From positions 76,975 through 140,974 of the forward strand of contig NGFH01000002.1 in the NCBI GenBank assembly GCA_002215675.1: DNA of 64,000 nucleotides, written 5' to 3'. Of this stretch, positions 33,339 to 49,320 are shown piece after piece. Every line of letters begins with the position of its first letter. Position 1 is the first letter of the stretch. Made by a program: the position numbers and the translations under genes. This DNA is from Bacteroidetes bacterium 2013_40CM_41_45. GTDB taxonomy: Bacteria > Bacteroidota > Bacteroidia > AKYH767-A > 2013-40CM-41-45. Below the pieces are notes generated by a model. That model searched no databases, was not told where the DNA came from, and saw only the letters and a program-made list of their open reading frames with translations.

Positions 33339-33864
33339 TTTACACTTGAAGTAAAATTTAGTCGAGACAGGTAATAAAAAATATTTACAGAATCATTCTC
33401 GCCAAATAACATTTCATCCATCTTGCCGGTAAATGGTTTAGAACATTCTCCTACAATAATACAAAATTTCTGAGCACTAACCCTTCAACATCCTCACATT
33501 AAAATAAATTATCAGGTTTTATTATACAGGATAACACCTTGCATTGCAAGTATGTTTTACGTCTTGGTGAATACTGCCGTCCGCACTTACTTTTCCCCAC
33601 CCTTGACTTGCAATTAAATTCAATGTATGGTATACTATACCAGTAGGATTATCAATTAAATATTACCCATTGTCCCGAGAGGATCGGGCCGAAAAGGCTT
33701 GATGCAAGCAATGGCTTTTGAAGATTGCATATTCCACTCTGAAGTGTAGTATGTAGTTGTTGTACGCCTTACTGCGGACAACGCCCCCGACGGGGGAAGG
33801 AAGGTACCTTCGGGTATTATTCGCCAAAAGCCCACTTGACTTGCATCAGTGGGCTATTTGGTTT

Positions 33865-34794
33865 ATGAAATTAAGTGAAGCAATAGAAAAATTTTCAAAG
33901 TGGCGAACATTTAAGGTTAAGAAATGTACTGTCAAAGGGTACGAGCTTATCCTGAAACAATTCTGCGTATTTGTCCGCAACTGTGATATTGAAAGAGTAC
34001 GACTGGAAGATGTTACATCTTGGTTCAGTCTTTTGAACGATCTTCAGTGGCAGCACAATTCATTCATCACAAAGGCGCAGGCGCTCAGAAAGTTTTTCGA
34101 ATTCTACAAGATGCAGGGTTATTTGGTCCTTGAACCGAACCTTATTCCTCTTCCATCGAAGGAGTACAACATTCCCCGTGTTGCTTCAGAAGAAAATTAT
34201 CGCAAATTATTATCAGCATTTCCTGTTAAAACGAACGACCCAAGGCACATAAGAAATAGGGCAATCGTAATGCTTTTATGGGATACCGGAGCGCGAAACA
34301 GTGAAATTCTTGCGCTTGATGTAAATGATATGGATACAGAGAAAATGCATGCAGTTATAAAGACAGAAAAATCCAAAGGCCGCAGGCCATTCCGGGAAAT
34401 TTTTTGGACTGAAGAAACTAACAAAGCTTTGCTTGCCTGGATTACTAAAAGAGAATTTTTAAAGAAAACAAAAATGCAGCATATGGATGAATGTTTGTTT
34501 CCCTCTATCTGTTCTTCAGCAGGACTAAATTTAAGCGGAAGAAGATTAACCAATAAAGGTGTCGCGGAGTTTTTAAGACGATATTCGAACCGTGCCGGTA
34601 TTCCTTATATAAATGCACACAGTTTCCGCCATCACATGGGTCACGATATTATTTCCCAAGGAGGAAGCGCAGCAGATGTGATGAATATACTTGGTCACGC
34701 TACGCTTGCCAGTTCTTCGATTTATACAATGATGACTGGAAAAGAATTGGAGAATCGCTACAACATATTTAAAAACAGAAAATCGTCTGTGTAA
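33865..34794 (+). CDS. Tyrosine site-specific recombinase/integrase (the ORF-track start at 33757 is probably leader sequence; preferred start MKLSEAIEKF)
   Basis: LWDTGARNSEILAL (Arg box), HSFRHHMGHDI (H-x-x-R) and LGHATLASSSIYT (catalytic Tyr region). Confidence 0.8.
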   Translation: MKLSEAIEKFSKWRTFKVKKCTVKGYELILKQFCVFVRNCDIERVRLEDVTSWFSLLNDLQWQHNSFITKAQALRKFFEFYKMQGYLVLEPNLIPLPSKEYNIPRVASEENYRKLLSAFPVKTNDPRHIRNRAIVMLLWDTGARNSEILALDVNDMDTEKMHAVIKTEKSKGRRPFREIFWTEETNKALLAWITKREFLKKTKMQHMDECLFPSICSSAGLNLSGRRLTNKGVAEFLRRYSNRAGIPYINAHSFRHHMGHDIISQGGSAADVMNILGHATLASSSIYTMMTGKELENRYNIFKNRKSSV

Positions 34795-34954
34795 AGTTGC
34801 TTTCTAATAACCGCTTGCTATACTTTGAGGGCTATTTGCAAACTCAATACTTCATCTGTCATAATTAACAGATGATTTTAAAAAAGGTTTTGTGCGGCTC
34901 ACCCATGAAATATAAGCGCTGTCATGGGAAGTAGGGAATAGATGATGCCACATA

Positions 34955-34982
34955 AAACCTTTGTAACCAAAGGTTTTTTTGT
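34955..34982. terminator. Intrinsic terminator (aaaacctttg-taac-caaaggtttt + T-run)
   Basis: Perfect 10-bp stem with flanking A and T runs. Confidence 0.55.
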
Positions 34983-35174
34983 TTGTGCATAGCGGCCTGT
35001 GGACTTCATAGAATGGTTGGCATTATCCCGAATTACAAGCGGGATCGTTCCGAAGCTAATTCGGGATTGATGCGAGAGGTGCCATTGTAAAAGCTCTGGC
35101 TTCAGCCAGGTTATCCACAGACCGCTCCGCATAAAGGAGCAGGTCGAATTAATATTTAATACAAAATTTTACTT

Positions 35175-35375
35175 ATGTTAATTTATGACATCTGCGTGCG
35201 AAGGAATTACGAGAAGGAGGGGGAAAAAAAAGTCATTTGGTATAAAGTCGGGTTTTTAAAGGTGGCAGAAACCGGTAAGAAATATATCCGCCTCTTTCAG
35301 CAGCCCAATACGGACTTTTTTGTTTTTGAAAATAAGGAGAAACAGGAAGAAACTACAGAGGAAAAACAGTCATGA
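35175..35375 (+). CDS. Hypothetical small protein (66 aa)
   Basis: ORF whose stop overlaps the start of the next gene (ATGA). Confidence 0.35.
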   Translation: MLIYDICVRRNYEKEGEKKVIWYKVGFLKVAETGKKYIRLFQQPNTDFFVFENKEKQEETTEEKQS

Positions 35376-35710
35376 GCATAGGGACTACATCTGTCCCCAA
35401 TGCTCTTTTTGATTTGCACCTTAGGAGTTTAAAACTGGCGGAAATAAAAGTCCTGTTGGTGATATATCAAATGTTAAATGTAGGCGATAAGACTGCCCTA
35501 CAATGTAATTGGCTTTCAGGTAAGCAAATGCAAGCTAAAACAGGAAGTTCAAGACGAGCTATTTCTTCCGCCATTGAAATGCTTGTCCAAAAAGGACTTA
35601 TTGAAGTAATCGACAGACAGGGAAATATTCTAAGAGAACCGGTGAGAAGAAAAGGCAAGACAAAATTACTCTTCCGGCTCTCTCCCTTTCTGTCACAGAA
35701 GGGAGAATGA
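35372..35710 (+). CDS. Hypothetical DNA-binding (winged-helix-like) protein
   Basis: LSGKQMQAKTGSSRRAISSAIEMLVQKGLIEV resembles a helix-turn-helix. Confidence 0.4.
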   Translation: MSIGTTSVPNALFDLHLRSLKLAEIKVLLVIYQMLNVGDKTALQCNWLSGKQMQAKTGSSRRAISSAIEMLVQKGLIEVIDRQGNILREPVRRKGKTKLLFRLSPFLSQKGE

Positions 35711-35805
35711 AAGAATACATTATCAATTCTAATTAAAATAAACATGCAAGATTCAAAACATGAAATCTCAGTTGAAGAAATTAGAAGCTGTTGGAATGAA
35801 AGAAA

Positions 35806-36801
35806 ATGATTCTCCGAAAACACTTGAACAAAGTGATTTGTGGAGATGCACTTGAAACGTTAAAAAAATTTCCATCGGCTTCCATTGACTGTGCCATATT
35901 CTCGCCACCGTATTGGCAAATGCGCGATTACCGGTGGAAAGGACAATGGGGGCAGGAGAAGTCATTTGAAGAGTACCTAGAACGATTATGGCGCTTTATG
36001 GACGAATTAAAACGGGTTTTAAAGGCACGGGGTACGGTCTGGGTTAATATAGGTGACACCTATGGCAAACTGCCCGCTAAAACTCTGCTCCTGCTTCCGC
36101 ACCGCTTCGCTGTCGGTTGTCAGGAGCGTGGGTGGCTAATCCGCAACGATATTGTTTGGGCAAAACCGAACGGCATGCCGGAGAGCGTCAAAGACCGCTT
36201 CTCCAAAAAGCATGAGTATATCTTCTTCCTAACCAAAAGCAAAAAATACTACTTCGATTTGGACAGCGTAAGAGAGCAGCACAAAACTGCTTCCTTTGAA
36301 CGGTTGCAGCGAGGAGTTTCCGAAAATAAGGGTGGAGGCGGTCAATCTGTACACAGTATTTCGCAGCCGCGTCCGCATCTCACTAAGATTATAAAGTTAG
36401 ATGCGGAACATTATGGCTCACCGCGGGCAAGATACCATCGTGGTGATGGCACCGTGCGCTCCTTACATCCTAAAGGCAAGAACCCGGGTGATGTCTCAGA
36501 CTTTTGGAGTATCTCCACGAAGCCGAACTTCCAAAAGCATTTTGCTTCCTATAACTACGAGCTCATCAATAAACCCATTCTTGCCGGCTGTCCTAAGGAT
36601 GGAATCGTTCTCGATCCGTTCTGCGGCATAGCTACAACTGGAGTCAGAGCAATTGAACTCGGCAGAAAATTCATCGGCATTGAAGGCAAGAAGTCGTATT
36701 GCAAAATGGCGATGAAAAATATTGCGGCGGCAGAAAATTATCAGTTAAACAAACATAACTATGAACGAAAACACATTTCCATTTACAAAAGAACAGCTTG
36801 A
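35806..36801 (+). CDS. DNA amino-methyltransferase (N6-adenine or N4-cytosine), beta-class
   Basis: SPPY motif (IFSPPYWQM) near the N-terminus and FxGxG motif I near the C-terminus (DPFCGIATTG). Confidence 0.7.
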   Translation: MILRKHLNKVICGDALETLKKFPSASIDCAIFSPPYWQMRDYRWKGQWGQEKSFEEYLERLWRFMDELKRVLKARGTVWVNIGDTYGKLPAKTLLLLPHRFAVGCQERGWLIRNDIVWAKPNGMPESVKDRFSKKHEYIFFLTKSKKYYFDLDSVREQHKTASFERLQRGVSENKGGGGQSVHSISQPRPHLTKIIKLDAEHYGSPRARYHRGDGTVRSLHPKGKNPGDVSDFWSISTKPNFQKHFASYNYELINKPILAGCPKDGIVLDPFCGIATTGVRAIELGRKFIGIEGKKSYCKMAMKNIAAAENYQLNKHNYERKHISIYKRTA

Positions 36802-37045
36802 ACGATTCAGAAACGAAATAGATGAAGCTGGGAGTTTTGAGAAATTAATGATTAAGAAAAGAGCCCTAGTTCGAAGGGACGGACAGAAATGTATCGCTTA
36901 CTACTACGATATGGAAAGATACAAAAGAATACACTTAAACGGAGTTTATGAATCGCTCCATCCCATGTACGAAACCGTCATGCCTTACGTTTTCTGGAGC
37001 GATATGTACGAGATATTACAACAGAGCGAAGCTAAAAAAATATGA
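36761..37045 (+). CDS. Hypothetical protein (94 aa) overlapping both flanking methyltransferase genes
   Basis: ORF whose stop overlaps the start of the Dam-like gene (ATGA). Confidence 0.35.
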   Translation: MNENTFPFTKEQLERFRNEIDEAGSFEKLMIKKRALVRRDGQKCIAYYYDMERYKRIHLNGVYESLHPMYETVMPYVFWSDMYEILQQSEAKKI

Positions 37046-37833
37046 GGACACCACTAACCTATTTCGGTGGTAAACAAAAACTTGCAAAGCATATTCTTCC
37101 TTTAATTCCAAAACATAACCTATACTGTGAACCTTTTTTCGGAGGCGGTGCAATTTTCTTTGCCAAACAGCCGTCAGAAATTGAGGTTGTCAATGATATC
37201 AACGGAGATCTGATTAATTTCTACTTTGTAATGAAAAATGATTTTAAGAAGTTACAGAAAGAAATTAAGGTAACGCTTCACAGCAGAGAATATCATCATA
37301 TAGCAAAAATAGTTTTGGGTTATCCACAGTTATTCAATAACGTAAAGCGTGCTTGGGCTATATGGGTACTTGCTAATGAAAGCTATTCTTCCCGGCTTGA
37401 TTCAGATTGGGGATATGATAGGAAAAAAAATACATCTGCAAAGCGCTTGCAACACAAAAGAGAAGATTTCTCCGATGATTATGCGAAGCGTCTTGAACAA
37501 ACCGAGATTGAAAACACGGATGCGCTTAAAGTCATTGAAACAAGGGATAGCAAACAGAGTTTTTTCTACTGTGACCCGCCTTATTTCAATGCAAGCCGGG
37601 GGCATTACATTAAATACTCAGAACAAGATTTTGAAAACCTGCTGAAGTTGCTCGCAACGATTAAAGGAAAATTTCTTTTGAGTTCCTATCCCTCCGAATT
37701 GCTCAACAAATATTCAAAGAAGAACCACTGGCATACGAGGGAAATCGATATGTCGCTTGATATTACTGCGAAGTTCAATACCGGGAAGAGGAAAAAGGAG
37801 ACCCTGACGTCTAATTACAACCTTAATCTTTGA
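37042..37833 (+). CDS. Dam-family DNA adenine methyltransferase (alpha-class)
   Basis: YFGGK, EPFFGGGA (motif I) and DPPY (FFYCDPPYFNASRGHY). Confidence 0.8.
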   Translation: MRTPLTYFGGKQKLAKHILPLIPKHNLYCEPFFGGGAIFFAKQPSEIEVVNDINGDLINFYFVMKNDFKKLQKEIKVTLHSREYHHIAKIVLGYPQLFNNVKRAWAIWVLANESYSSRLDSDWGYDRKKNTSAKRLQHKREDFSDDYAKRLEQTEIENTDALKVIETRDSKQSFFYCDPPYFNASRGHYIKYSEQDFENLLKLLATIKGKFLLSSYPSELLNKYSKKNHWHTREIDMSLDITAKFNTGKRKKETLTSNYNLNL

Positions 37834-37885
37834 TAAGTTTGTGAAAAACTGATAAAGTTCTATTTTTGTAGAAAATAAAATAACT

Positions 37886-38227
37886 ATGTCATTATCGATT
37901 ACAGACCTTGATGAGTTCCATCAATATTTTAATGGAGTTATGAGCCGAACTGCTCATCACGCACCGAATGTGGATGAAATTATTTTTACAATTGTCGGAG
38001 GTGTTCTTTGGAAAGCAACTCACAATATAAAAGTCAGAGAACAAGACGGAGAAACAAAAAATATACTTTGGTTCAATGTCGGTGATAAACGTTATACATT
38101 AAGGTATGAACATGGCAATGGTGGAAGTATAGAACTTCTGTCAGGTACGTTACAAGGATCATTTGTGGCGCGTTTTGATAATCAAACAACTCTATCGGCT
38201 GTCCGGCAAGTATTTTCCACCCTTTAA
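37886..38227 (+). CDS. Hypothetical protein, 113 aa
   Basis: ORF only. Confidence 0.4.
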   Translation: MSLSITDLDEFHQYFNGVMSRTAHHAPNVDEIIFTIVGGVLWKATHNIKVREQDGETKNILWFNVGDKRYTLRYEHGNGGSIELLSGTLQGSFVARFDNQTTLSAVRQVFSTL

Positions 38228-38246
38228 ATCTTAATACACTATATCA

Positions 38247-38591
38247 ATGGAATCAATAATAGCGCATAATAGGACAGCAGTTGTACTAAATGCAAACCAA
38301 GAACAACATATTTCGTTTGGTACTAATATCGATGCAACAGAAGCAAGAGTGTATTTGCGATATCCTCCACTTAAAAACGACAGTAGACTGGAAATTTTCT
38401 TTTCTGATACTGATGGTAGAAAGGCAGGAAACGGGCATGTGATTCTATCGAATAGTGGAACTTCAGAATTCACATTAGAATTCTCAGATGAACAATATGT
38501 AGGTATGAAATCATATATTTTTAATGGAATAGCGTTCAAATGCCCTCATAACTTCACTTTTGAATTCTGGATTGAAAGGCAACCATTATAA
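38247..38591 (+). CDS. Hypothetical protein, 114 aa
   Basis: ORF only. Confidence 0.4.
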   Translation: MESIIAHNRTAVVLNANQEQHISFGTNIDATEARVYLRYPPLKNDSRLEIFFSDTDGRKAGNGHVILSNSGTSEFTLEFSDEQYVGMKSYIFNGIAFKCPHNFTFEFWIERQPL

Positions 38592-38685
38592 ATCTATAAC
38601 ATTCGAGTTGATTCACTAGGCGCGATGCATTTTTTGTAGAATCGATACGAAATGTTAGGTTTGTGTTCACGAGATTAGCTCTATA

Positions 38686-41079
38686 GTGAACTTTAAAGGT
38701 CTTTTTGAAAAGCTTTATTTCGCTTCCTCTGAAGAAGCGGTTGATGAAATTATTAATCAACATCCTGATATTTTTAAAAATGAAAATTGGAGTCCGTTTG
38801 GAGGAGACGAAAAACTTTTTGGAATTGTCAGAGGTCAGCAATCCAGTCCTATCGCTGCATTGGTTGAGAAAGTGACAAATTCCATTGACGCAATTTTAAT
38901 GAGGAAGTGTTTTGAATCAGGAATTAATCCGTCCTCAACGAATGCTCCACGTACTATGGGTGAGGCAATCAATAAATTTTTCCCTGACCATAAGAACTGG
39001 GATCTGTCAAAGTTTAGAGCGAAGCAGTCAGAGGAAATTCAGGTTGTTGCTGATGGTCCACCCCGTAACACTTCAGTAATTATCTATGACAATGGCGAAG
39101 GACAACACCCACAGGAATTTGAAAACACATTTTTGTCTTTGGTGCGCGGGAATAAAATCAACATCCATTTTGTGCAGGGGAAATATAACATGGGCGGCAG
39201 CGGTGCTTTAGTTTTCTGTGGAAGGAAGCGATTTCAACTCATTGGCTCAAAGCGGTTTGACCATTCAGGGAAATTTGGTTTTACATTATGCAGACAACGA
39301 AAGATAGGTGATGCGACTGATGCAAAACGTTTCAGCTATTTTGAATATCTAAAAATTGAAGGAGAGATTCCTTTGTTTGAATCCGGTGAAATGGATTTGA
39401 AGCTCTTAAATAGAAAATTTAAAACGGGCACAATAATTAAATTGTATTCATATCAATTTCCTTCGGGATATTCTGGGTTTGCTCAGGACTTAAATCAAAG
39501 CTTAAATGAATTTCTTTTTGAACCCGTACTGCCTGTTTACACAGTTGATAACAAAGAACGATATCCAAACAACAAAGTTCTTGAGCTTGATTTATATGGA
39601 TTGAAAAGAAGATTAGAAGAGGATAAAAACGATTATGTTGAAAGATTTTTTTCGGAAGAATACGTTGATGAGCTTTTTGGAATAACAAAAGTCACATGTT
39701 ATGTTTTCAAACCTAAACTTGAGAAGCGAAATGTAAAAGAATCAAAAAAGATTATTGGGGACCGGTTCTTTCGGAATGATATGTCAGTTATGTTTTCCGT
39801 AAATGGACAAGTTCAGGGCAGTTATACTTCTGAATTCATTACGCGTACATTGAAATTTAATTTGCTGAAGGATTATTTACTTATTCATTGCGACTGTACG
39901 AATATGAAACCTGACTTCAGGGAAGAAATATTTATGTCCGATAGGGAAAGGTTGTCCAAAGGGGAGGACGCTCTTGCTCTTCGGGATTACTTAGGAAAGA
40001 AGCTGCGAAAGAGTCAATTGGATGAAATCAATCGACACAGAAAAGAATCCATCGGATTAGAAAGTGAAGATACTTCTGAACTGATAAAGTCATTTGCGAA
40101 AAATCTTCCGAAAGACAGTGAGTTGTTCAAACTTCTACAAAACACATTGAAGCTGGAAGAGAAAAAAGAAACCAAGAAATCTGAGGACGGACAAAGGCCA
40201 AAAAATGTAAAGGAAGAAAAACCGTTTAATCCAAGTCGTTTCCCATCGCTGTTTAAGTTGAATGGAAGTAAAGGCGGTATAACCGTGATCAATCTGCCAG
40301 TTAACGGAGAGAAAACAATAAGGTTTGATACTGACGTTGAAGATGATTATTTCGACAGGGTTGATGAACCAGGTGAACTGCAGATAGCTCTTTTGAAGAT
40401 AAAAAGAAATATTGTTGGAGGTGGAGATAAACCTGGAAGTAAAAAAGAAATTTCCGAATATCTGAATATTGTAAAAAGCAGCCCTAGTAGAGGTACTATA
40501 AGACTTACTCTCAATCCCACCCATGAGTTGAAAATAGATGACGAAGTTGAAATAAAAGTTTCACTTACTGCTCCAGGAGAAGCAAAGGACGAAATGCTTC
40601 TTGTAAAAATTGTTCAACCTGAAGCGCCGAAAGAAAAAGCACCTAAACAGGAGGAAGAATTAGAAAGTATAGGTTTACCTGAACTCAAACGTGTTACATC
40701 TCAGCAATGGGAACAAATGGAACAACACGGTATTTCAATGAACAGAGATACAGTAATGTTTCCTGTTGGCGAGGGAGATAAACTTGAAAAAGTTTACATC
40801 AACTTAGACAGTCGTGTTTTTTTGAATCATCGCTCTAAGCTGAAATCAGAAGATCAAATTACAGTTGCGCAAAAACGTTACCTCTCCTCTGTATATTTTC
40901 ATACTCTATTTCTTTACATAATTACAAAAAGAAAAAAATATTCTCTTACTATCCCAAAAGGGGATAAGCAGGAAGAAGTTACCGTTGATGAATATATCCG
41001 CGATGTATTTGATAGTTACTACTCCGACTTTTTATTGAACTTCGGGATGGAGCAATTGATGGGAGTGTTAGAAGAATAA
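38686..41079 (+). CDS. GHKL (Bergerat-fold) ATPase-domain protein, 797 aa, with a long charged Lys/Glu-rich linker
   Basis: N box EKVTNSIDA and G1 box YDNGEGQ near the N-terminus. GTG start. The last 51 nt of the gene are repeated at 41889..41939. Confidence 0.55.
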   Translation: MNFKGLFEKLYFASSEEAVDEIINQHPDIFKNENWSPFGGDEKLFGIVRGQQSSPIAALVEKVTNSIDAILMRKCFESGINPSSTNAPRTMGEAINKFFPDHKNWDLSKFRAKQSEEIQVVADGPPRNTSVIIYDNGEGQHPQEFENTFLSLVRGNKINIHFVQGKYNMGGSGALVFCGRKRFQLIGSKRFDHSGKFGFTLCRQRKIGDATDAKRFSYFEYLKIEGEIPLFESGEMDLKLLNRKFKTGTIIKLYSYQFPSGYSGFAQDLNQSLNEFLFEPVLPVYTVDNKERYPNNKVLELDLYGLKRRLEEDKNDYVERFFSEEYVDELFGITKVTCYVFKPKLEKRNVKESKKIIGDRFFRNDMSVMFSVNGQVQGSYTSEFITRTLKFNLLKDYLLIHCDCTNMKPDFREEIFMSDRERLSKGEDALALRDYLGKKLRKSQLDEINRHRKESIGLESEDTSELIKSFAKNLPKDSELFKLLQNTLKLEEKKETKKSEDGQRPKNVKEEKPFNPSRFPSLFKLNGSKGGITVINLPVNGEKTIRFDTDVEDDYFDRVDEPGELQIALLKIKRNIVGGGDKPGSKKEISEYLNIVKSSPSRGTIRLTLNPTHELKIDDEVEIKVSLTAPGEAKDEMLLVKIVQPEAPKEKAPKQEEELESIGLPELKRVTSQQWEQMEQHGISMNRDTVMFPVGEGDKLEKVYINLDSRVFLNHRSKLKSEDQITVAQKRYLSSVYFHTLFLYIITKRKKYSLTIPKGDKQEEVTVDEYIRDVFDSYYSDFLLNFGMEQLMGVLEE
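41029..41079 (+). repeat. 51-bp direct repeat, copy 1 (3' end of the GHKL gene)
   Basis: tttttattgaacttcgggatggagcaattgatgggagtgttagaagaataa; 46/51 identical to 41889..41939. Confidence 0.6.
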
Positions 41080-41098
41080 AAAGTAAAAAGCTAAAAAA

Positions 41099-41869
41099 AT
41101 GAAAATCTTAGATTTATTAAAAAAGCTTTCATTATTTATTTCTATAACGTTCTTAGGAGTACTTATTTCTAACTTATTTCCTGGTCAATATAACAAACTT
41201 ATTGTTATAATAATTTGCATTGCATTTATTTCATATGCGGCTACTTATTTCATACATAGGAGTATAAGCAAAAATATAACTAATAAGTCCTTAGATATTA
41301 CTGGTTTTTTTCTCACCGAAAGAGGAAGGAAATTTATTGCAACAATGGAAGTAATGGGTATTCATGATGTATTTAGTAAGCTAAGAGGAAGCGAGGCGGA
41401 TCCTCGTAATATCGTAAAAAGTGTAAAAAAATCCTTATATTTTATGGGAGGTACAGCATCCAAATGGAGAGATATGGAGGCTCTAAATGGAATTGCAAAG
41501 TTGCAAGCTGATAATGTTGAAATTAAATTTCTTTTATTCAATCCCGAATCAAAAAATAAGCAAGAATTCTTTAAGTTAAGACAACTTGAAGCGAGCAATA
41601 CATATTTTATGGAATTTATGAATAGAAATAAAAATGTTGAAATAAGAGTATTCGATTTTTTGCCACATATTCGTTTAAACATAATTGATAACAAAGTCAT
41701 GTATGTTTATAGTTATTATGATCATAATGCAAACTATAGTTTTGGGGAAGAAACTCCAGTTATTAAGCTCTTAAATGATTCTGAGATTCAAAAACCTTTG
41801 TACGAGGCGTTTCAAAAATATTTTGAAAATGTTTGGTCTGAGTCTAAGCAAATAATTCCAAAAGTTTGA
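41099..41869 (+). CDS. Membrane protein (two N-terminal TM helices + ~190-aa cytoplasmic or periplasmic domain), hypothetical
   Basis: LFISITFLGVLISNLF and LIVIIICIAFISYAATYFI hydrophobic helices. Confidence 0.5.
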   Translation: MKILDLLKKLSLFISITFLGVLISNLFPGQYNKLIVIIICIAFISYAATYFIHRSISKNITNKSLDITGFFLTERGRKFIATMEVMGIHDVFSKLRGSEADPRNIVKSVKKSLYFMGGTASKWRDMEALNGIAKLQADNVEIKFLLFNPESKNKQEFFKLRQLEASNTYFMEFMNRNKNVEIRVFDFLPHIRLNIIDNKVMYVYSYYDHNANYSFGEETPVIKLLNDSEIQKPLYEAFQKYFENVWSESKQIIPKV

Positions 41870-41888
41870 CAGGAAGACATTCTAATTT

Positions 41889-41939
41889 TTTTTATTGAAC
41901 TTCGGAATGGAGCAATTGATGGGAGTTCTTGAGGAATAA
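41889..41939 (+). repeat. 51-bp direct repeat, copy 2 (immediately after the membrane-protein gene)
   Basis: tttttattgaacttcggaatggagcaattgatgggagttcttgaggaataa. Confidence 0.6.
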
Positions 41940-41940
41940 T

Positions 41941-42978
41941 TTAAGCAGCTTTTACAAATAGTTTATCTGCTTCAATCTTTAAAAGCCGTATAATATCATT
42001 AATTTCAGTGTATCTCCTTTTCTTAGAATGATTAAGCATTGTTCTGACAATTTGGTAAATTCTCGAATGCTTAATCATAAAATCCTTTTCCTTTATTACT
42101 CCAATTGGAGCATTATATTGAAATATGTACCAAAACACTTTTCCCAATTGAAATATATCAGACTGATGGTCAATAAAACAATTATGATCGAATTCAAAAT
42201 TCTTTCCTTCGCATAAAAATTTATTCATTGACTCAGGAGACAGCCATCCGGCGGGACCTATACGCTCTGCAATGTTATCTATCATATCTAAACTATTCCG
42301 TTCTGCGATTAGGCCTAAATCACCTATTTTCCAAAGTGAATCAATCATAAAAATATTATCGGGCTTAATGTCTCTATGATAATAACCTAATGAAAATAAT
42401 TCCTTTAATCCTTCACAAAGACTTATAGATAATTCAATCTTTTCATATAATTCTAAACGGTTGTGATTAAGCTCAATGTATTTTTTCAAATCATTGTTGG
42501 CATATTCCATTGTGTAAAACAAATATTCATCATAGGATGTATTAGGAACGTTTCTTATTTTGCAAGTTCCATCATGAAAGATTTTTATAACGTTCTGAAA
42601 GTTTTCTGCATTACATTTTTTTAGAGCGTCTATTTCCTTTTTGAACCGCTTCTCTTTTTTTGACGGAAATCTTAAATTAGAAGAGTTTTTTGAGTTCGAT
42701 ATTTTCAAAACAATATCGGGATCTCCATATTCAATATTTCCTGTATTGACTTCATCGAATGTCTGACTTTCATAAAGATTTAGGATAATAGAATTACCAC
42801 CCTTATTACCTGGACTTGCCCCATTAAGGTATGTAAAGTAATATCCTATTCCATCAATTGTAATAAAATTATCTTTTGGATTTTCTATAGTAATAGGCTG
42901 GCCATATTGACTGGTTCCAACTCGATTGTAAATCGTGCTATTTATAATTAATTTATTATCTGGAAAATTAAATTCCAT
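41941..42978 (-). CDS. Eukaryotic-like protein kinase fold protein (345 aa)
   Basis: Catalytic loop YYHRDIKPDNIFM, DLG (DFG-equivalent) in KIGDLGL, SPE (APE-equivalent) in GWLSPES, Gly-rich GNKGGNS, and VLKI (beta3 Lys). Four-nucleotide gap to the upstream DUF262 gene. Confidence 0.6.
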   Translation of the reverse strand: MEFNFPDNKLIINSTIYNRVGTSQYGQPITIENPKDNFITIDGIGYYFTYLNGASPGNKGGNSIILNLYESQTFDEVNTGNIEYGDPDIVLKISNSKNSSNLRFPSKKEKRFKKEIDALKKCNAENFQNVIKIFHDGTCKIRNVPNTSYDEYLFYTMEYANNDLKKYIELNHNRLELYEKIELSISLCEGLKELFSLGYYHRDIKPDNIFMIDSLWKIGDLGLIAERNSLDMIDNIAERIGPAGWLSPESMNKFLCEGKNFEFDHNCFIDHQSDIFQLGKVFWYIFQYNAPIGVIKEKDFMIKHSRIYQIVRTMLNHSKKRRYTEINDIIRLLKIEADKLFVKAA

Positions 42979-42982
42979 GATT

Positions 42983-44101
42983 TCATTTATTTAAGCTTTC
43001 AACATCAAGCAATTCAAAATTTCCAATTTTCTTCAGACTTACTTTTCTATTTCCAAACAATGACGATAAATAATTTAATACGTCAGCCAAAGTCTCATTA
43101 ATATTAATAGATTCATTTTTAAGTATCGCATTAAAAAAATTCAATCTTTTTTCTCTGGCACTTTTTGAATTGGATTGAGTGATACAATTATTTGCATATT
43201 CCTTAAGAGCTAGGCACTCTTCGTTAGATGGACGTATCATTTGCCTCCCATCTTTATCTTTACCATCGATAACAAGCAATATTTTGTATTGATACTTTAA
43301 GACCTCATTTTCTAAATCAATATTCTCACTAAGGAATGAGAATAATGTGTAAAAATCATTCTTCTGTTTATATCGTGTTCCAACCAGTGGAGTGATATTA
43401 TTTAGCAATTCTATTTTATCTATTATTCTTTTAAAAGTTTTGTCAAGGTAATTGTACTCATCTTGATTAATGTCTGATTTAAAAACACCCTCTACAGACT
43501 TCCTTTTGTCTTTAACTCCTGAAATTAAATATGCTAAAAGTTCCTCAATGAACGCTCTATCATTCATTCGTTTTGAAGTTGCTTCGGAGAAGAGATTCAA
43601 ATTGATTAAATTCTGATACGAAAGCAAATCATTCGCTAATTTCATAAACATAGAATCGTGAAATTCAGATTTATTTACTTCCGCTATATTAAGGTGAACC
43701 CCTTTTTTATTAATGAGGACATAAAATTCTTTTAAAAAAGCAGGATTTGAAACCTCGCGGATTAAAATTACGGGAATTCTATAATCAAGAAATCTTTCTT
43801 GATCTACACTAGAAAATTGAATTTTACTAAATGCTTTTGAAGATGTAATTTGTCCTTTAACAAATCGATAAATTGTTTTTGTCCGCTGTTGCCCGTCCAC
43901 AATTTCATAAGTTCCTCCTGGTTTTTCATAAAAGAAAAAACTTGGAAGTGGATATGCTTTCAAAATTGTATCAATTAGCTCCATTTGATTATCTGGAGAC
44001 CAAATAAAGTTCCTTTGATACGAGGGATTTAAATCAATAAGATTATTATCAATTAAATGAATGACTTCTCTTATTGAAAATTCTTTAAGAATAAATTCCA
44101 T
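42983..44101 (-). CDS. DUF262 (ParB/GmrSD-N-like) domain protein with DGQQR motif; SspE-N-terminal-like or DndB-like
   Basis: PSYQRNFIWS ... GTYEIVDGQQRTKTIYRF. No recognisable nuclease motif in the C-terminal 170 aa. Confidence 0.65.
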   Translation of the reverse strand: MEFILKEFSIREVIHLIDNNLIDLNPSYQRNFIWSPDNQMELIDTILKAYPLPSFFFYEKPGGTYEIVDGQQRTKTIYRFVKGQITSSKAFSKIQFSSVDQERFLDYRIPVILIREVSNPAFLKEFYVLINKKGVHLNIAEVNKSEFHDSMFMKLANDLLSYQNLINLNLFSEATSKRMNDRAFIEELLAYLISGVKDKRKSVEGVFKSDINQDEYNYLDKTFKRIIDKIELLNNITPLVGTRYKQKNDFYTLFSFLSENIDLENEVLKYQYKILLVIDGKDKDGRQMIRPSNEECLALKEYANNCITQSNSKSAREKRLNFFNAILKNESININETLADVLNYLSSLFGNRKVSLKKIGNFELLDVESLNK

Positions 44102-44104
44102 TTT

Positions 44105-45211
44105 TCAAACAAAACAAGCCGTACATCCTTCGTCGTCTAATTTTGGTAAGATGTCAAGCAACTTGTTGGATTTTGGCTTTTCGTTTTTTGTACGTTTAAG
44201 ATATTCTGATTTGATTTGCTCCATCCTGTTGGGTTGAATCAAATCGGTCAGACTTTCGTGCTGGTTCCATGTAAAACCCGCTTTTTCGTTTTCATATTTC
44301 ACTGCCGAATTAAAAAGGTCAGGATGTTGTTCGTAAAGCCAAATCCATTCTATGCGCTGCTGAAAAAAGCAAAAGTAGCAACCGGAACGACTCCGTGCAT
44401 ACATTCCATTTTCGCTCTCGGTTTTAAAAGGAAGTTTGGTGTAGTAGTTTGGCATCCCAACAGTTTCACGAAGTAGCTCTACAACATCTTCCATTTTATA
44501 AATATCTTCATTATCCAGTAAAGGAAAATTATGAACATTAGCTAAAGGATAAGATGTGCTTTTCAAAAACTCGAATGTTATGTGATTAAATGTAACGGTA
44601 TCTAAATTCAAAAGTGCTTTTAATTTTTGCTCTTTAGTGAATTCAACAGTGATAGGTTCTTCAATTACAGAAATGAAACGCGGTAAGCGTTCTTCACTTA
44701 CACGTTGCTGGTATTGTTTAGAAAGAAATGGAATATTGGTATTCGCCAACACTTTTGCAATTATATCTACGCTCCATATATTTTGACGGAAAGGAAAAAT
44801 AGATTGAATGTTTGGCTTGGTGGAGATGTATCCTTCGCGGTTTTCATCACCCCGAATACCGACATACGAAATCACAGGAGTATCACCGACAAATTTTTCA
44901 AACGGTTCAATTTTTAATTTCTTCGTACACCAGCGAGCTGTTGGGCTTGGCAGGTATCCACCGAAAAGATTAAAGTAGTGATCAAATGGGTCTTTGTTGG
45001 AATCTTTGGCAGCTTCGAGATATGTAACCTTTTTTCCAAGGAAGCTTTCAAGATTCTTTATCAGGGTATAAGTGTCCTCTAATTCTTTTCCCGTATCGCA
45101 AAAATAATATTCAATATCCAGTTGAGGATAATTACGCTTCATATAAACCGCTAAAGCAGCGCTGTCCTTGCCTCCCGATATGCCGAGTACGTGCCTTATG
45201 CTATTGTTCAT
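44105..45211 (-). CDS. PAPS-reductase-like PP-loop ATP pyrophosphatase (SspD/DndC-like)
   Basis: PP-loop LGISGGKDSAALAVYM. C-terminal Cys motifs CYFCFF / GCTACF. Confidence 0.7.
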   Translation of the reverse strand: MNNSIRHVLGISGGKDSAALAVYMKRNYPQLDIEYYFCDTGKELEDTYTLIKNLESFLGKKVTYLEAAKDSNKDPFDHYFNLFGGYLPSPTARWCTKKLKIEPFEKFVGDTPVISYVGIRGDENREGYISTKPNIQSIFPFRQNIWSVDIIAKVLANTNIPFLSKQYQQRVSEERLPRFISVIEEPITVEFTKEQKLKALLNLDTVTFNHITFEFLKSTSYPLANVHNFPLLDNEDIYKMEDVVELLRETVGMPNYYTKLPFKTESENGMYARSRSGCYFCFFQQRIEWIWLYEQHPDLFNSAVKYENEKAGFTWNQHESLTDLIQPNRMEQIKSEYLKRTKNEKPKSNKLLDILPKLDDEGCTACFV

Positions 45212-48200
45212 TCGATAATTCTTCCTGTAAAAGTTTTACAAGGATACTGAGATTTGTTTTAGTGTCCTTTCGCAATATCGTCTTTATTTTTTGCACTGCA
45301 ACATCCACGTCCTTTTGCTGTGATTTTGGAATACGCAGAATCCTTTTACTTAATCCTTTTACAAAAGAAGATACTTGAAACATTAAAACTTCTTCATTTG
45401 CTTCATCCACATCCGACTTACTAAGTTCGCTTAAAGAATCCAATTCCAAAATAAATTCGCTGAACTGGGTGTGTAGTTTGCTTTCTTCTTCATCGGTTAT
45501 TGAATCCAAGGATTTTCCTATACAAGCCTGTGCAATAGAGGCAAGATAAGAATCGCGGTCATCCAATTCGGAAGTTAGACGGTTATAAAATGCTTTTTGT
45601 GCGGGAAGCAGCAAATACGTTTTTAAGCCGGAGAATCGCTTCTTAATAGAATTTTTGTAAGAAGGGAAATTTCCCTCAACGCCTAAAACATTTTTAACTG
45701 TTTCTTCAAAGAGAGTTAGTAGCTGGTTATAACTGCCTTGAATTTCACGAATGTAAGTTTGCAATTCTTGGACAAATTTCTCAGCAAGTTTTTCATCTTT
45801 TTTTAACTGAGGTAATGTATAGCCCAGTGCTGCCGGAAAATCTTCAAAGAAAATTTTTTCAGGATCAATTGCATTTGCGATTGCATCACGCAATGCGATT
45901 GCTTTTTTAGAAATGCGCTTTGTGGTTTTCGAATAGCTGCTGAGGTTTCTGTACAGGACTAAAAAGGGTCTAATCGTTTCAATAAAACTTTTATTTGATA
46001 CCCTAATGTCCTTGCTTTGATTGATAAGGGTGCGATACCGCCTGAATAATTTTATCCGAATGCTGTCCAAATCAAATGCCTTGATGCTGAAGTTTGCCGG
46101 CTTGCGAACGAGCAGATCTAAAACATCAGATTTAATTTCTGGAATATATTTTCCCTCATCATCATAAAGTGCATATTCATCCTGTTGTGAGATAAGAAAA
46201 ACGCATAGCCAAAAATCAAGAAATCCTTTTTTGAGTTTGATAGGTTTGCGAGAAAGAATATCTACTAACTCCTGTAAATTGCGTTTATCTGTTTTCGCAC
46301 TCGAAATAAAATCAACGCATATTTTCCACAGTGGCAGGAAAGAACTTTCAGCAGGTCGGCTTAATTGCCAGAATCCTTCACTGTTGTTATGTATGCCGGG
46401 TTCCTTTAAAAGAGAAAGGTAAATAGTTTTCTGAGGTGGAAAATGAGTTTCATCAAACCCAATATTTTCTATGTCACAACGCGATAAAAGCGCAAGAACC
46501 AAATCCCTTCTTGCAGCTGAAATCTGAGGGGAAATACTTGTTTTATTCACCATCTCATTTTTGAAATGAGGTGTTCTATTGTAAACGGTATTACAGATTT
46601 CGGAAAGTTTCTGATTCAGTTGCGTGCTGTTTTTGATATGTAGTTTTTCATCCCTAAAATACCATTCAACAATTTCAGGATTGTAGAAACTATCCATCAC
46701 AGCATGATTAAGTAAATTGCGGTTGTGTTGCAAAATACCTTTAAGTTCGCGGACAGCTACTTTATCATCCGGATTTAGTTCAATTACTTTGTTTACTTTT
46801 TGAATTTCAAAAAGTAGCTTCTGAATTTCTTTTGTGTTCTTAAAGCAACCAAATAAAATTGCTTCATCAGAGTTTGCAGAAGCACGCCTTATTTCTGCTG
46901 CCCTAGGGTTGAGGGAGAAGACAAGATTAATGTAACCATCAATTTCATCTTCTGGAACTAAGCTAATTGGATTTTCACTGATTTGAAATTGAAAAAAACG
47001 GGGAGTACCTGTTTTAAAAAATTCTTTCTTGGTAAGTATAAAAGGGAACTCAAAATTTTGTTGCAAGTGATGAACTACGTTTGTTACACGTTCTATCAAA
47101 TTACCTGCTTGATCAATTGCTAAATCAATATCAATATCAGTTCCTTCAAACAGAATGTACTTAAATGCATAATTAACGTACCGAATGATTTTATACTTTT
47201 CTAAGGTTTCAATGATATGTTCCGCATTACGAATACCCAAAGAATATTTTGCATAGTCAATCAAAAATGATTTTGTAAGTTTAGCTGACGCAGTGGCAAA
47301 AATGTTAAGTAAACCAATACTCTTAATTAATTTAACTGCGTCATTTTGTTGCTTACTTTTAAATGCTTCTATTCCTTCAACTTGTGCAATAGATTTTTTT
47401 AAAAGATTCCATTCTACAAAGTGGGGGTTATTTTTACTGTTGATGAACGAATAATAATTATGAGCGAAATACTCGTATATACAAGCAAGGTTGTAATAAG
47501 GGTGCTCATCTGAATTATAATCGTTTATGCCGTAGAAGTCATTTGATTCTAAAAATGAAAATAAGCTGCGTTCGTTTTGCCCATAACGTTGTAATGCCAA
47601 AGTGAGCACCGCTGCTGAAAGAATATCAAACGGAAGGAGTTTCTGAGCAATATCTTCATTGAAATAATCACGAAGTGGGAATGCTTTCGCATCTCGGATA
47701 ACTTCAAACAACTTTTGAAAATCTTTGGCGTCATTTCCTTTTGTACTTCTAAGCATCCTCTCAGAAGCTAAATATAGAAGTTGTTCTACGGGTTCATTAA
47801 ACGTAATATCTTTTAATCTTCCTTTGACTTTATTCCATTCATTACGCTGTGCTTTTGTCAAATCAAAAGCATAAGTGCCAAAATCCTGGTGAAGAGTTGT
47901 AATTAAAAGCAAATTATTTTTTTCATCATTTGCCAATTCTGCTAGCTGTTGAATAAAATAAAGTTCCTCTTCGGGATCATTTTTTGCAGCGCATTCTAAA
48001 AATTTTCCAAACTCATCTACTGCAATTATTGTTTTATAATTTTTCTTTTTATTCGATTTACAACGAAATGAAATTTCCTGAAGCAAATCGGAAATTTTGA
48101 ATAGAGAATTATGGCGGACTTTAAAACGCTCTGAAAAAGATTGTGTGATAGAAACGTAACTACCTATCACTTCAATAAACTCCATTTTTCCATATGAGTC

Positions 48201-48449
48201 TGTAAATTTTTTTGCTTCAGGAAAGTGATTATGTCTTCCATTCAGTGTCTGATAAAGAGCGAGTAAGAAAGATGATTTACCTGTGCCATATGCACCGATA
48301 ATATTAAACGCGCGATTTCCAGCATCAAAATCTAAAAGAAGTTGTTTATAAACCTGCTTGGCGTTAGGTGTTGAAATGTAATTCAACGGTGAATCTAAGT
48401 CACGCTGAATATTTGCCGAGGGAGAAAATTTTGGTTTAATAGCAATCAT
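45201..48449 (-). CDS. Large P-loop NTPase (1082 aa), SspC/BrxC-like
   Basis: Walker A GAYGTGKSS and Walker B TIIAVDEFGK. Overlaps both neighbouring genes. Confidence 0.6.
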   Translation of the reverse strand: MIAIKPKFSPSANIQRDLDSPLNYISTPNAKQVYKQLLLDFDAGNRAFNIIGAYGTGKSSFLLALYQTLNGRHNHFPEAKKFTDSYGKMEFIEVIGSYVSITQSFSERFKVRHNSLFKISDLLQEISFRCKSNKKKNYKTIIAVDEFGKFLECAAKNDPEEELYFIQQLAELANDEKNNLLLITTLHQDFGTYAFDLTKAQRNEWNKVKGRLKDITFNEPVEQLLYLASERMLRSTKGNDAKDFQKLFEVIRDAKAFPLRDYFNEDIAQKLLPFDILSAAVLTLALQRYGQNERSLFSFLESNDFYGINDYNSDEHPYYNLACIYEYFAHNYYSFINSKNNPHFVEWNLLKKSIAQVEGIEAFKSKQQNDAVKLIKSIGLLNIFATASAKLTKSFLIDYAKYSLGIRNAEHIIETLEKYKIIRYVNYAFKYILFEGTDIDIDLAIDQAGNLIERVTNVVHHLQQNFEFPFILTKKEFFKTGTPRFFQFQISENPISLVPEDEIDGYINLVFSLNPRAAEIRRASANSDEAILFGCFKNTKEIQKLLFEIQKVNKVIELNPDDKVAVRELKGILQHNRNLLNHAVMDSFYNPEIVEWYFRDEKLHIKNSTQLNQKLSEICNTVYNRTPHFKNEMVNKTSISPQISAARRDLVLALLSRCDIENIGFDETHFPPQKTIYLSLLKEPGIHNNSEGFWQLSRPAESSFLPLWKICVDFISSAKTDKRNLQELVDILSRKPIKLKKGFLDFWLCVFLISQQDEYALYDDEGKYIPEIKSDVLDLLVRKPANFSIKAFDLDSIRIKLFRRYRTLINQSKDIRVSNKSFIETIRPFLVLYRNLSSYSKTTKRISKKAIALRDAIANAIDPEKIFFEDFPAALGYTLPQLKKDEKLAEKFVQELQTYIREIQGSYNQLLTLFEETVKNVLGVEGNFPSYKNSIKKRFSGLKTYLLLPAQKAFYNRLTSELDDRDSYLASIAQACIGKSLDSITDEEESKLHTQFSEFILELDSLSELSKSDVDEANEEVLMFQVSSFVKGLSKRILRIPKSQQKDVDVAVQKIKTILRKDTKTNLSILVKLLQEELSNEQ

Positions 48450-49320
48450 TCAACACCTCCATTTTATCAAGTGTTTTTTTAAATTGTAATTCCTGAACTC
48501 CGGCATTTTCTGAAAAAGTTACGCCCTGACTTTTATAATCTTTTTTTATTTGTTCCAATTTCGCAAACAGGCCTTCTCTGCTGAGAGCGAATATCGAACC
48601 AGGCATATTTTTTCCAATATGCAGGTCTTTAAATGAAATTGATTTACTGTTGGGACGCGCATCTAAAATGGTAAAGAGCAATAAACCTGTTGGCAAGTCA
48701 TACCGAAGACCACTCTCAATTTTAAAGTAATCTACCCTTTTATTTTCATAGTCACGACCTTCTATTTGCTCCATCAATTGCAAATCCACCAACACACTTG
48801 AAAAATCTTCTTCGATTCCTTCACGTGTATCTTTAGAAGACGGTTTTATGTAAGTGCGAATAAAAACTGCAATGTCGTTATTAATTGTGGTTGTGCTCAA
48901 TTTAATTTCGTCTTCTTGTAGTCGCTTAGTTACAAAAGCGAGTAAATGTTCACGGCTGAATTCCATTCGTTGCCGTCTAAATTCATTAAAGAAAATATTG
49001 TACAATGAAGAATGATTATTGCTTACTAGTAAGTAGTGCAACAACCAAACAGTTGCAATGTTCTCGATATATGGGTCTTCACCCTTTTTGTCGTCAAAGA
49101 TGAATCGTCCGATACCAGTCAACTGATTTTTAGTATCTATCACGCTAAAGCCTTTCATCCAATAATGGACGGCACTCACCATATTCTTACCAACCCCCAA
49201 TTTTATAACAGCTTTTTCCTCACGGAAAGAGTTACCTTCATTCACAAAGTCATAGCCCTTCTTGAGCCAAAAATGCTTACAGATAAATGAATCGTGACCA
49301 GAGAATAACAATTTATTCAT
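48436..49320 (-). CDS. First gene of the operon (294 aa); position and size fit a DUF4007/SspB-like protein
   Basis: Assignment rests on synteny and size only. Overlaps the ATPase gene by 14 nt. Confidence 0.4.
   Translation of the reverse strand: MNKLLFSGHDSFICKHFWLKKGYDFVNEGNSFREEKAVIKLGVGKNMVSAVHYWMKGFSVIDTKNQLTGIGRFIFDDKKGEDPYIENIATVWLLHYLLVSNNHSSLYNIFFNEFRRQRMEFSREHLLAFVTKRLQEDEIKLSTTTINNDIAVFIRTYIKPSSKDTREGIEEDFSSVLVDLQLMEQIEGRDYENKRVDYFKIESGLRYDLPTGLLLFTILDARPNSKSISFKDLHIGKNMPGSIFALSREGLFAKLEQIKKDYKSQGVTFSENAGVQELQFKKTLDKMEVLNDCY

Follow-up and report, generated by a model that had tools for sequence, protein, structure and literature searches.

We analysed a 64,000-nucleotide (nt) stretch of contig NGFH01000002.1 (forward strand, positions 76,975 to 140,974; assembly GCA_002215675.1) from Bacteroidetes bacterium 2013_40CM_41_45, here called the window, and in particular a locus within it at which a GHKL-type ATPase gene is followed by a small membrane-protein gene, here called gene X, by a convergent Ser/Thr protein kinase gene and by the genes of a predicted phosphorothioation system, SspB (DUF4007), SspC and SspD being encoded together. 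Gene X is flanked by direct repeats at 41029-41079 (copy 1) and 41889-41939 (copy 2), each 51 nt long, identical at 46 of 51 positions and with starts 860 nt apart. Copy 1 consists of the final 16 codons and the TAA stop of the 797-amino acid (aa) GHKL open reading frame (ORF; 38686-41079), and both copies encode the peptide FLLNFGMEQLMGVLEE followed by a stop codon. The peptide of copy 1 matches the consensus C-terminus of the GHKL family, SDFLLNFGMEQLMGVLEE, and the GHKL ORF, into which copy 1 falls, is kept intact. Copy 2 begins 19 nt past the stop of the 256-aa gene X ORF and ends 1 nt short of the minus-strand stop codon of the kinase gene (41941-41943), and the insert between the two copies is 809 bp long with gene X as its sole gene. 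An earlier note on this DNA, made from the letters alone, had reported a 51-nt repeat that duplicates the 3' end of the GHKL gene at 46/51 identity, and a recount and alignment bear this out; it had placed the membrane-protein gene at 41099..41886, whereas the ORF actually spans 41099-41869.

Within positions 38000-44000 the 51-nt pair ranks first among repeat families. The two copies have exact blocks of 17 nt and 20 nt in common, and a 38-nt sub-block recurs with 1 mismatch, an event seen 0 times in 100 dinucleotide-preserving shuffles of the window. At 41889, within a run of eight T residues (41886-41893), homology to the GHKL tail sets in abruptly, with no more GHKL remnant upstream. The frame of copy 2 differs from that of gene X and is itself shut upstream by a TAA codon (41883-41885), and copy 2 is not translated now; the repeat being the extreme C-terminus and stop codon of the GHKL protein, nothing stands in frame after it. 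Both copies are unchanged in four further records, namely a Logan assembly, JGI (Joint Genome Institute) 3300002907, GCA_009772315.1 and ENA ERZ27286490 (L082, L084-L086), and no structural heterogeneity was detected at the repeat locus, at the level of assemblies, across the five records, which come from different samples. As all five show the identical structure, it is not an artefact of assembly. For chance similarity or an artefact of this kind only the AT-rich context could be cited, and with the shuffles, the agreement of the five records and a repeat shorter than a sequencing read all standing against it, its likelihood is negligible.

The differences between the copies, at 41046, 41067, 41068, 41070 and 41073, fall at third codon positions or in one TTA/CTT leucine pair; all five (5/5) are synonymous and the stop codon is retained. 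Silent single substitutions account for 26 of the 153 possible in the repeat (17%), and the probability that five random substitutions would spare both peptide and stop is about 1e-4, rising to 1.3e-3 if transitions are strongly favoured. This pattern of change tells against an in-place duplication, in which slippage, unequal crossing-over or a transposon target-site duplication would have copied the 51 nt when X was inserted, with drift to follow. A target-site duplication classically shows itself as direct repeats on either side of an insert, but silent-only divergence would be expected from such an origin with P about 1e-4 to 1e-3, and with P about (0.17/1.17)^5 = 6e-5 if all five changes had arisen in the selected, coding copy. 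In addition, 51 nt far exceeds known target-site duplications, the inverted repeats listed include no terminal pair around X, and the unit contains no transposase ORF; we find an in-place duplication scarcely credible.

Because silent-only differences are so improbable under in-place duplication, the copies have evidently diverged as coding sequence in separate lineages. A set of 80 related loci from species-representative genomes (L001-L080) was used for comparison. Among GHKL orthologues the 51-nt DNA varies freely at synonymous sites and is not conserved at the DNA level, and orthologues encoding the same peptide match either copy at 36-46 of 51 nt, so that 46/51 is ordinary divergence between alleles of different lineages. 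The allele tail of one such locus, L001, matches copy 2 at 46/51 and copy 1 at 43/51. Copy 2 is accordingly the 3' end, now stranded, of another and diverged GHKL allele; it gained its changes whilst it was still a working gene end and has undergone no decay since becoming stranded.

The site without gene X is represented among the related loci. The kinase is present in 11 of the 80, the window being the twelfth case, and in eight of these 11 (L005, L013, L015, L027, L031, L041, L050 and L072) 11-77 nt separate the GHKL stop from that of the kinase gene, an arrangement that constitutes an empty site; other inserts occupy the GHKL/kinase junction in L035, L036 and L046. It is this native tail-to-tail abutment of GHKL and kinase genes that copy 2 preserves in the window. 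No homologue of gene X was found in the 80 related loci, using both tblastn and a hidden Markov model (HMM) built from distant X relatives, and among 5.8 billion protein clusters gene X matches only itself, in this strain only and always in the same arrangement. The empty site and the absence of X elsewhere support the view, put forward in the earlier note, that the repeat is the footprint of an insertion of the 41099-41869 gene after the GHKL gene.

The same note had suggested that cassettes might be exchanged at the repeat by site-specific recombination, and here the evidence does not support it. Such a scheme would have an integrase-less cassette, consisting of X and a replacement GHKL tail, integrate at an att-like site in the GHKL 3' end with a tyrosine recombinase acting in trans, much as e14 or phage 21 enters icd or in the way of an integron or CIME-type cassette. 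Direct repeats do bracket an 860-bp single-gene unit, the target ORF is preserved by the upstream copy with silent changes, as at icd, and the copies have the exact 17-nt and 20-nt blocks in common; neither strand, however, showed a hairpin or an attC-like fold at the repeats (minimum free energy 0 to -1.7 kcal/mol, z-scores +0.35 to +2.2). A tyrosine recombinase gene is likewise present, at 33757-34794, but its product is Xer-like (53 bits against TIGR02249, compared with a cutoff of 265 bits for integron integrases) and the gene is 6 kb away from copy 1, on its upstream side, and some 7 kb away from X and copy 2, whilst the 809-bp insert itself carries X and no recombinase. The lack of conservation of the 51 nt as DNA among orthologues, the restriction of X to one strain and the uniformity of the five assemblies point the same way. 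Moreover, no second copy of the GHKL tail was found in the 47 loci, beyond the window, that bear the GHKL-sspD slot described below, the tail search returning noise only (E at least 0.001) and a motif search agreeing with it. Tail matches of 13-16 nt in L023, L064 and L071 were treated as chance. Positions 40000-43000 contain no Rfam families, and a scan for promoters and terminators at the repeat gave nothing above expectation. Site-specific integration is, in our assessment, decidedly unlikely. Very improbable, too, is the reading in which the GHKL 3' end is a docking site where Ssp loci load and unload accessory genes, X being a precisely and reversibly excisable cassette of an integron-like kind that operates on coding sequence in place of attC sites; were it true, recombination between the repeats would restore an intact GHKL gene.

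We consider it probable, with appreciable room for doubt, that X entered the locus along with the 3' end of a donor GHKL gene, one homologous crossover in the resident GHKL gene being combined with an illegitimate join. The donor DNA, from another lineage, would have comprised the 3' part of that lineage's own GHKL allele and then, 19 nt downstream and co-directional with it, like other tightly coupled modules that follow GHKL, gene X. One crossover would have occurred by homology inside the conserved GHKL gene, and the far end would have been joined illegitimately in the T-run at 41886-41893, which leaves 51 nt up to the end of the resident gene, presumably by way of microhomology offered by the run itself. 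The product would be a GHKL gene with the donor tail (copy 1), followed by X and then by the resident tail (copy 2), still abutting the kinase gene; the resident tail, formerly tail-to-tail with the kinase gene as part of a working gene, would now be stranded as non-coding DNA. Such a process would be homology-facilitated illegitimate recombination; an equivalent route to the same product would be a Campbell-type single crossover of a circularised fragment within the 51 nt, and the mirror image, in which a resident GHKL-X pair received an incoming block of GHKL tail, kinase, DUF262 and ssp genes, would yield it too. Since the old GHKL end has been left intact, the event would be a recent one.

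Several points weigh against this history. The GHKL genes of L001, L015, L030, L002, L003 and L005, at 67-83% nucleotide identity per 150-nt interval, are too far from that of the window to reveal the crossover, and no mosaic is visible. Neither a donor GHKL-X locus nor a close pre-insertion relative is among the genomes sampled, the nearest kinase being 67% identical, and an exact search of metagenome contigs for the junction between copy 2 and the kinase gene came back empty, in a collection that evidently does not include the sample of the JGI contig carrying it. Homologous recombination between alleles so diverged is inefficient. The breakpoint in a related locus, L019, to which we return below, is drawn from five sites examined post hoc, and transfer in either direction fits the product.

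A relic from a diverged allele would equally be left by two successive steps, in which a whole second GHKL allele with X downstream, and perhaps an entire integrase-methylase block to its left, arrived beside the resident locus and a later deletion spared only the last 51 nt of the redundant resident allele. None of the 80 loci has a counterpart to the left flank of GHKL in the window, where an integrase, two methyltransferases, a VCH_CASS14 protein and a 114-aa ORF (orf114) lie, and the window GHKL gene is not preceded by the sspA-like gene seen at that place in 23 of 67 loci, both of which favour this course of events. It requires, however, two independent events and a deletion ending exactly in the same T-run; GHKL is otherwise always found in an ssp locus, not on an ssp-less island, and no att-like repeat of 12 nt or longer links the integrase end to positions 41860-41960. 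The end product would be indistinguishable from that of a single step, and we hold the two-step course to be rather unlikely.

The entry of X with a donor GHKL end can be set against the wider behaviour of the locus. In 47 of the 80 related loci sspD converges on GHKL over a slot of 1.7-8.5 kb, which in the window corresponds to 41080-44104, from the GHKL stop to the sspD stop. Modules found in this GHKL-sspD slot include a kinase or SIR2_2, each with DUF262, a DndB-like gene paired in either orientation with a 173-aa partner, a BrxC/D-like trio, an Mrr_cat nuclease gene that begins at an ATG overlapping the GHKL stop (TAATG), a paraMORC-like HATPase trio and a nucleoside deoxyribosyltransferase-like gene. 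GHKL alleles that are 91-96% identical carry wholly different modules (e.g. L017/L019, L012/L017, L037/L043 and L029/L032), whilst modules that are 80-86% identical stand beside GHKL alleles only 62-63% identical (L014/L038, L011/L042 and L020/L044), and it is exactly at the GHKL stop that the nucleotide identity of close GHKL alleles drops to the random level. In the GHKL gene of L019 informative sites mostly favour L017 and the last five (-34 to -2) favour L012, a comparison made post hoc and on few sites; because these five switch to L012, whose downstream Mrr_cat module is also that of L019, they suggest a crossover inside the GHKL 3' end of L019. The slot is, by these comparisons, a region of interchangeable defence modules with frequent turnover, and the event recorded by the scar would be one instance of this turnover between GHKL and sspD. 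As to the proposal in the earlier note of cassette insertion and variation, the empty site in eight of 11 kinase loci, the absence of X from the 80 loci and the varying slot modules uphold it, and what lacks support is exchange at the repeat. The note had also foreseen that a repeat absent from homologous loci, with no cassette variation there, would be a chance duplication; the repeat is indeed absent from homologous loci, yet the variation is present and chance is excluded.

The features of the locus and their coordinates are collected in Table 1.

Table 1. Features at and around the GHKL-kinase junction of the window, with the basis on which each was assigned.
Feature	Position	Strand	Basis
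GHKL-type ATPase gene, 797 aa, GTG start	38686..41079	+	ORF; HATPase_c_3 E 1.2e-4; 3' end is copy 1
Repeat copy 1, functional GHKL tail	41029..41079	+	peptide equals family consensus; donor origin inferred
A-rich spacer of 19 nt, GHKL stop to X start	41080..41098	+	operon-like spacing; sequence read
Gene X, 256 aa, two N-terminal membrane helices and PLD-fold DUF5919-like domain	41099..41869	+	ORF; DUF5919 E 4.5e-5
Right-hand insert junction	41870..41888	+	last 3 bases (41886-41888) open the 8-T run that reaches copy 2 bases 41889-41893; inferred microhomology join
Repeat copy 2, non-coding relic of a GHKL tail	41889..41939	+	46/51 to copy 1
Ser/Thr protein kinase gene, convergent with GHKL	41941..42978	-	Pkinase E 1.2e-18
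DUF262/GmrSD_N protein, partner in the kinase module	42983..44101	-	domain matches
sspD, sspC, sspB (DUF4007), far border of the variable slot	44105..49320	-	PADLOC SspD E 4e-92, SspC E 0; DUF4007 annotation
Left flank: Xer-like tyrosine recombinase (33757-34794), two small ORFs, N6_N4 methyltransferase, D12-class methyltransferase, VCH_CASS14-family protein, 114-aa ORF	33757-38591		

Gene X itself has relatives only at a distance. An exhaustive profile search yielded 172 of them, with at most 37% identity, which share residues of about 80-252 of X. The AlphaFold2 model of X (pLDDT 88) shows two N-terminal helices and a fold of the phospholipase D (PLD) superfamily, and Foldseek matched it to TrmBL2, Nuc, NucT, FAM83 and F13. 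The X family, with N-terminal membrane helices and a PLD-fold, DUF5919-like domain, is without the HKD histidine and lysine and has a consensus LPxFRLxFxD with an invariant arginine (Arg192). In relatives the X-type domain is fused to EAD11, DUF4062, PRTase-CE or BTAD. One relative directly follows sspB-sspC-sspD in a cyanobacterial contig (L087), with a GmrSD gene adjoining, others (L090-L093) belong to operons that also hold CTP_transf_like and PPDK_N/DHH genes, and a NUDIX gene is found as a neighbour too. In view of this company X resembles an intact gene of the accessory or effector type from conflict systems, and the scar marks it out as recently added to an Ssp-type system and probably functional. 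The G+C content of X (28-31%) is like that of the kinase and DUF262 genes, that of GHKL being 35-42%; given this resemblance, G+C content was set aside as not decisive for a foreign origin.

The GHKL label derives from a sub-threshold HATPase_c_3 match (22.5 bits against a cutoff of 25) and from precomputed PF13589 matches in many homologues. Homologues of the GHKL protein number more than 2,400 and are about 800 aa long, and the best 120 listed are 68-85% identical and come from several phyla. Genes for SspD, SspC or SspB lie within 10 kb of GHKL in 58-68 of the 80 loci, and a cysteine desulfurase (sspA-like) gene ends 2-29 nt upstream of it in 23 of 67. Its linkage to ssp genes, the convergent sspD and the desulfurase gene upstream make the GHKL gene an integral, conserved companion of SspBCD phosphorothioation loci. 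The protein is matched by no PADLOC or NCBIfam model, and no solved structure could be assigned to it by sequence; a GHKL-type protein is not mentioned in the SspFGH paper, and none was found in the Ssp papers checked. Identity with SspE, SspF, SspG or SspH was considered and rejected, there being no PADLOC or NCBIfam match and no GHKL-type protein in the SspFGH paper. The protein of about 800 aa may serve Ssp phosphorothioation systems as a restriction or sensor partner that has so far gone undescribed, and this uncharacterised partner of SspBCD, sitting beside a hyper-variable module slot, is a better lead than the scar.

In one of the further records of this locus (L085; GCA_009772315.1, WNFM01067737.1) the GHKL gene has a 17-nt deletion (window positions 39795-39811) and a G-to-T change at a first codon position (40651). 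It is called there as three fragments (376, 249 and 120 aa), sspD and sspC are split too, and the contig has 120 N. Such fragmentation could mean that the system is truly decaying in a subpopulation, or that the assembly is poor.

Further from the junction, the left flank (33757-38591) differs from all 80 related loci and has probably also been replaced by imported DNA. The window holds giant ORFs at 22067-32785 (3572 aa) and 2565-11240 (2891 aa). The 3572-aa ORF has CARDB/Ig-like repeats and a Por_Secre_tail, as expected of a cargo protein of the type IX secretion system, and forms the left border of the defence island; because it carries this tail, a Bacteroidota host is indicated.

What the scar offers is evidence, at the level of base pairs, of the entry of an accessory gene into a defence locus, the incoming DNA having brought its own version of the end of the neighbouring gene and the old end having been left behind. 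In E. coli, prophage e14 and phage 21 integrate in the 3' end of icd, bringing a substitute 3' end with mainly silent differences and stranding the native end as a direct repeat at the far side. These two elements carry an integrase gene of their own and are found in many strains at one and the same att site, whereas the unit in the window lacks both an integrase and a conserved DNA site and does not recur. With integron cassettes it has in common a single promoterless gene of about 0.8 kb in one orientation, and a VCH_CASS14 gene and a tyrosine recombinase nearby, but it lacks an attC hairpin and an IntI-type integrase, and its repeats are duplicates of coding sequence, not imperfect palindromes. 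Hotspots of P2 and P4 prophages, and those of defence islands, hold variable defence genes between conserved flanks. The conserved GHKL and sspD genes flank interchangeable, unrelated modules in the same manner; here, however, the flanks belong to one defence system (Ssp), and the scar shows the join directly. The orphan cassettes of Rhs and contact-dependent inhibition (CDI) systems are different again, as no variable in-frame C-terminal domain follows the repeat in the window.

Closer parallels come from loci where a conserved upstream gene acts as anchor. For displacement of effector-immunity pairs at type VI secretion system (T6SS) loci of Vibrio cholerae, homology-facilitated illegitimate recombination at a conserved upstream anchor has been proposed, with the displaced 3' ends kept as orphans (Kirchberger et al., 2017, PMC5361080), and a 'C-terminal displacement' has been described for rhs loci (Jackson et al., 2009, PMC2935791, as relayed by Kirchberger et al., 2017). 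The window agrees with both in having a conserved upstream gene as homology anchor and an old 3' end pushed back. It differs in that the piece is only 51 nt long and is a conserved tail, not a toxin tip, in that a single event is seen, not an array, with no effector-immunity logic, and in that the locus is a phosphorothioation defence island. Homology-facilitated illegitimate recombination is known from Acinetobacter, Streptococcus pneumoniae, Pseudomonas stutzeri and conjugation in E. coli (PMC3240628). In it one end is anchored by homology, the other is joined without homology or at microhomology, and foreign DNA without a counterpart in the recipient is added; the window would be alike in each of these respects, with the difference that its mechanism is read back from the product. 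The scar supports the idea that conserved defence genes serve as recombination anchors for the swapping of modules, as proposed for T6SS and Rhs loci, and among recombination scars it adds a new example to a kind already known.

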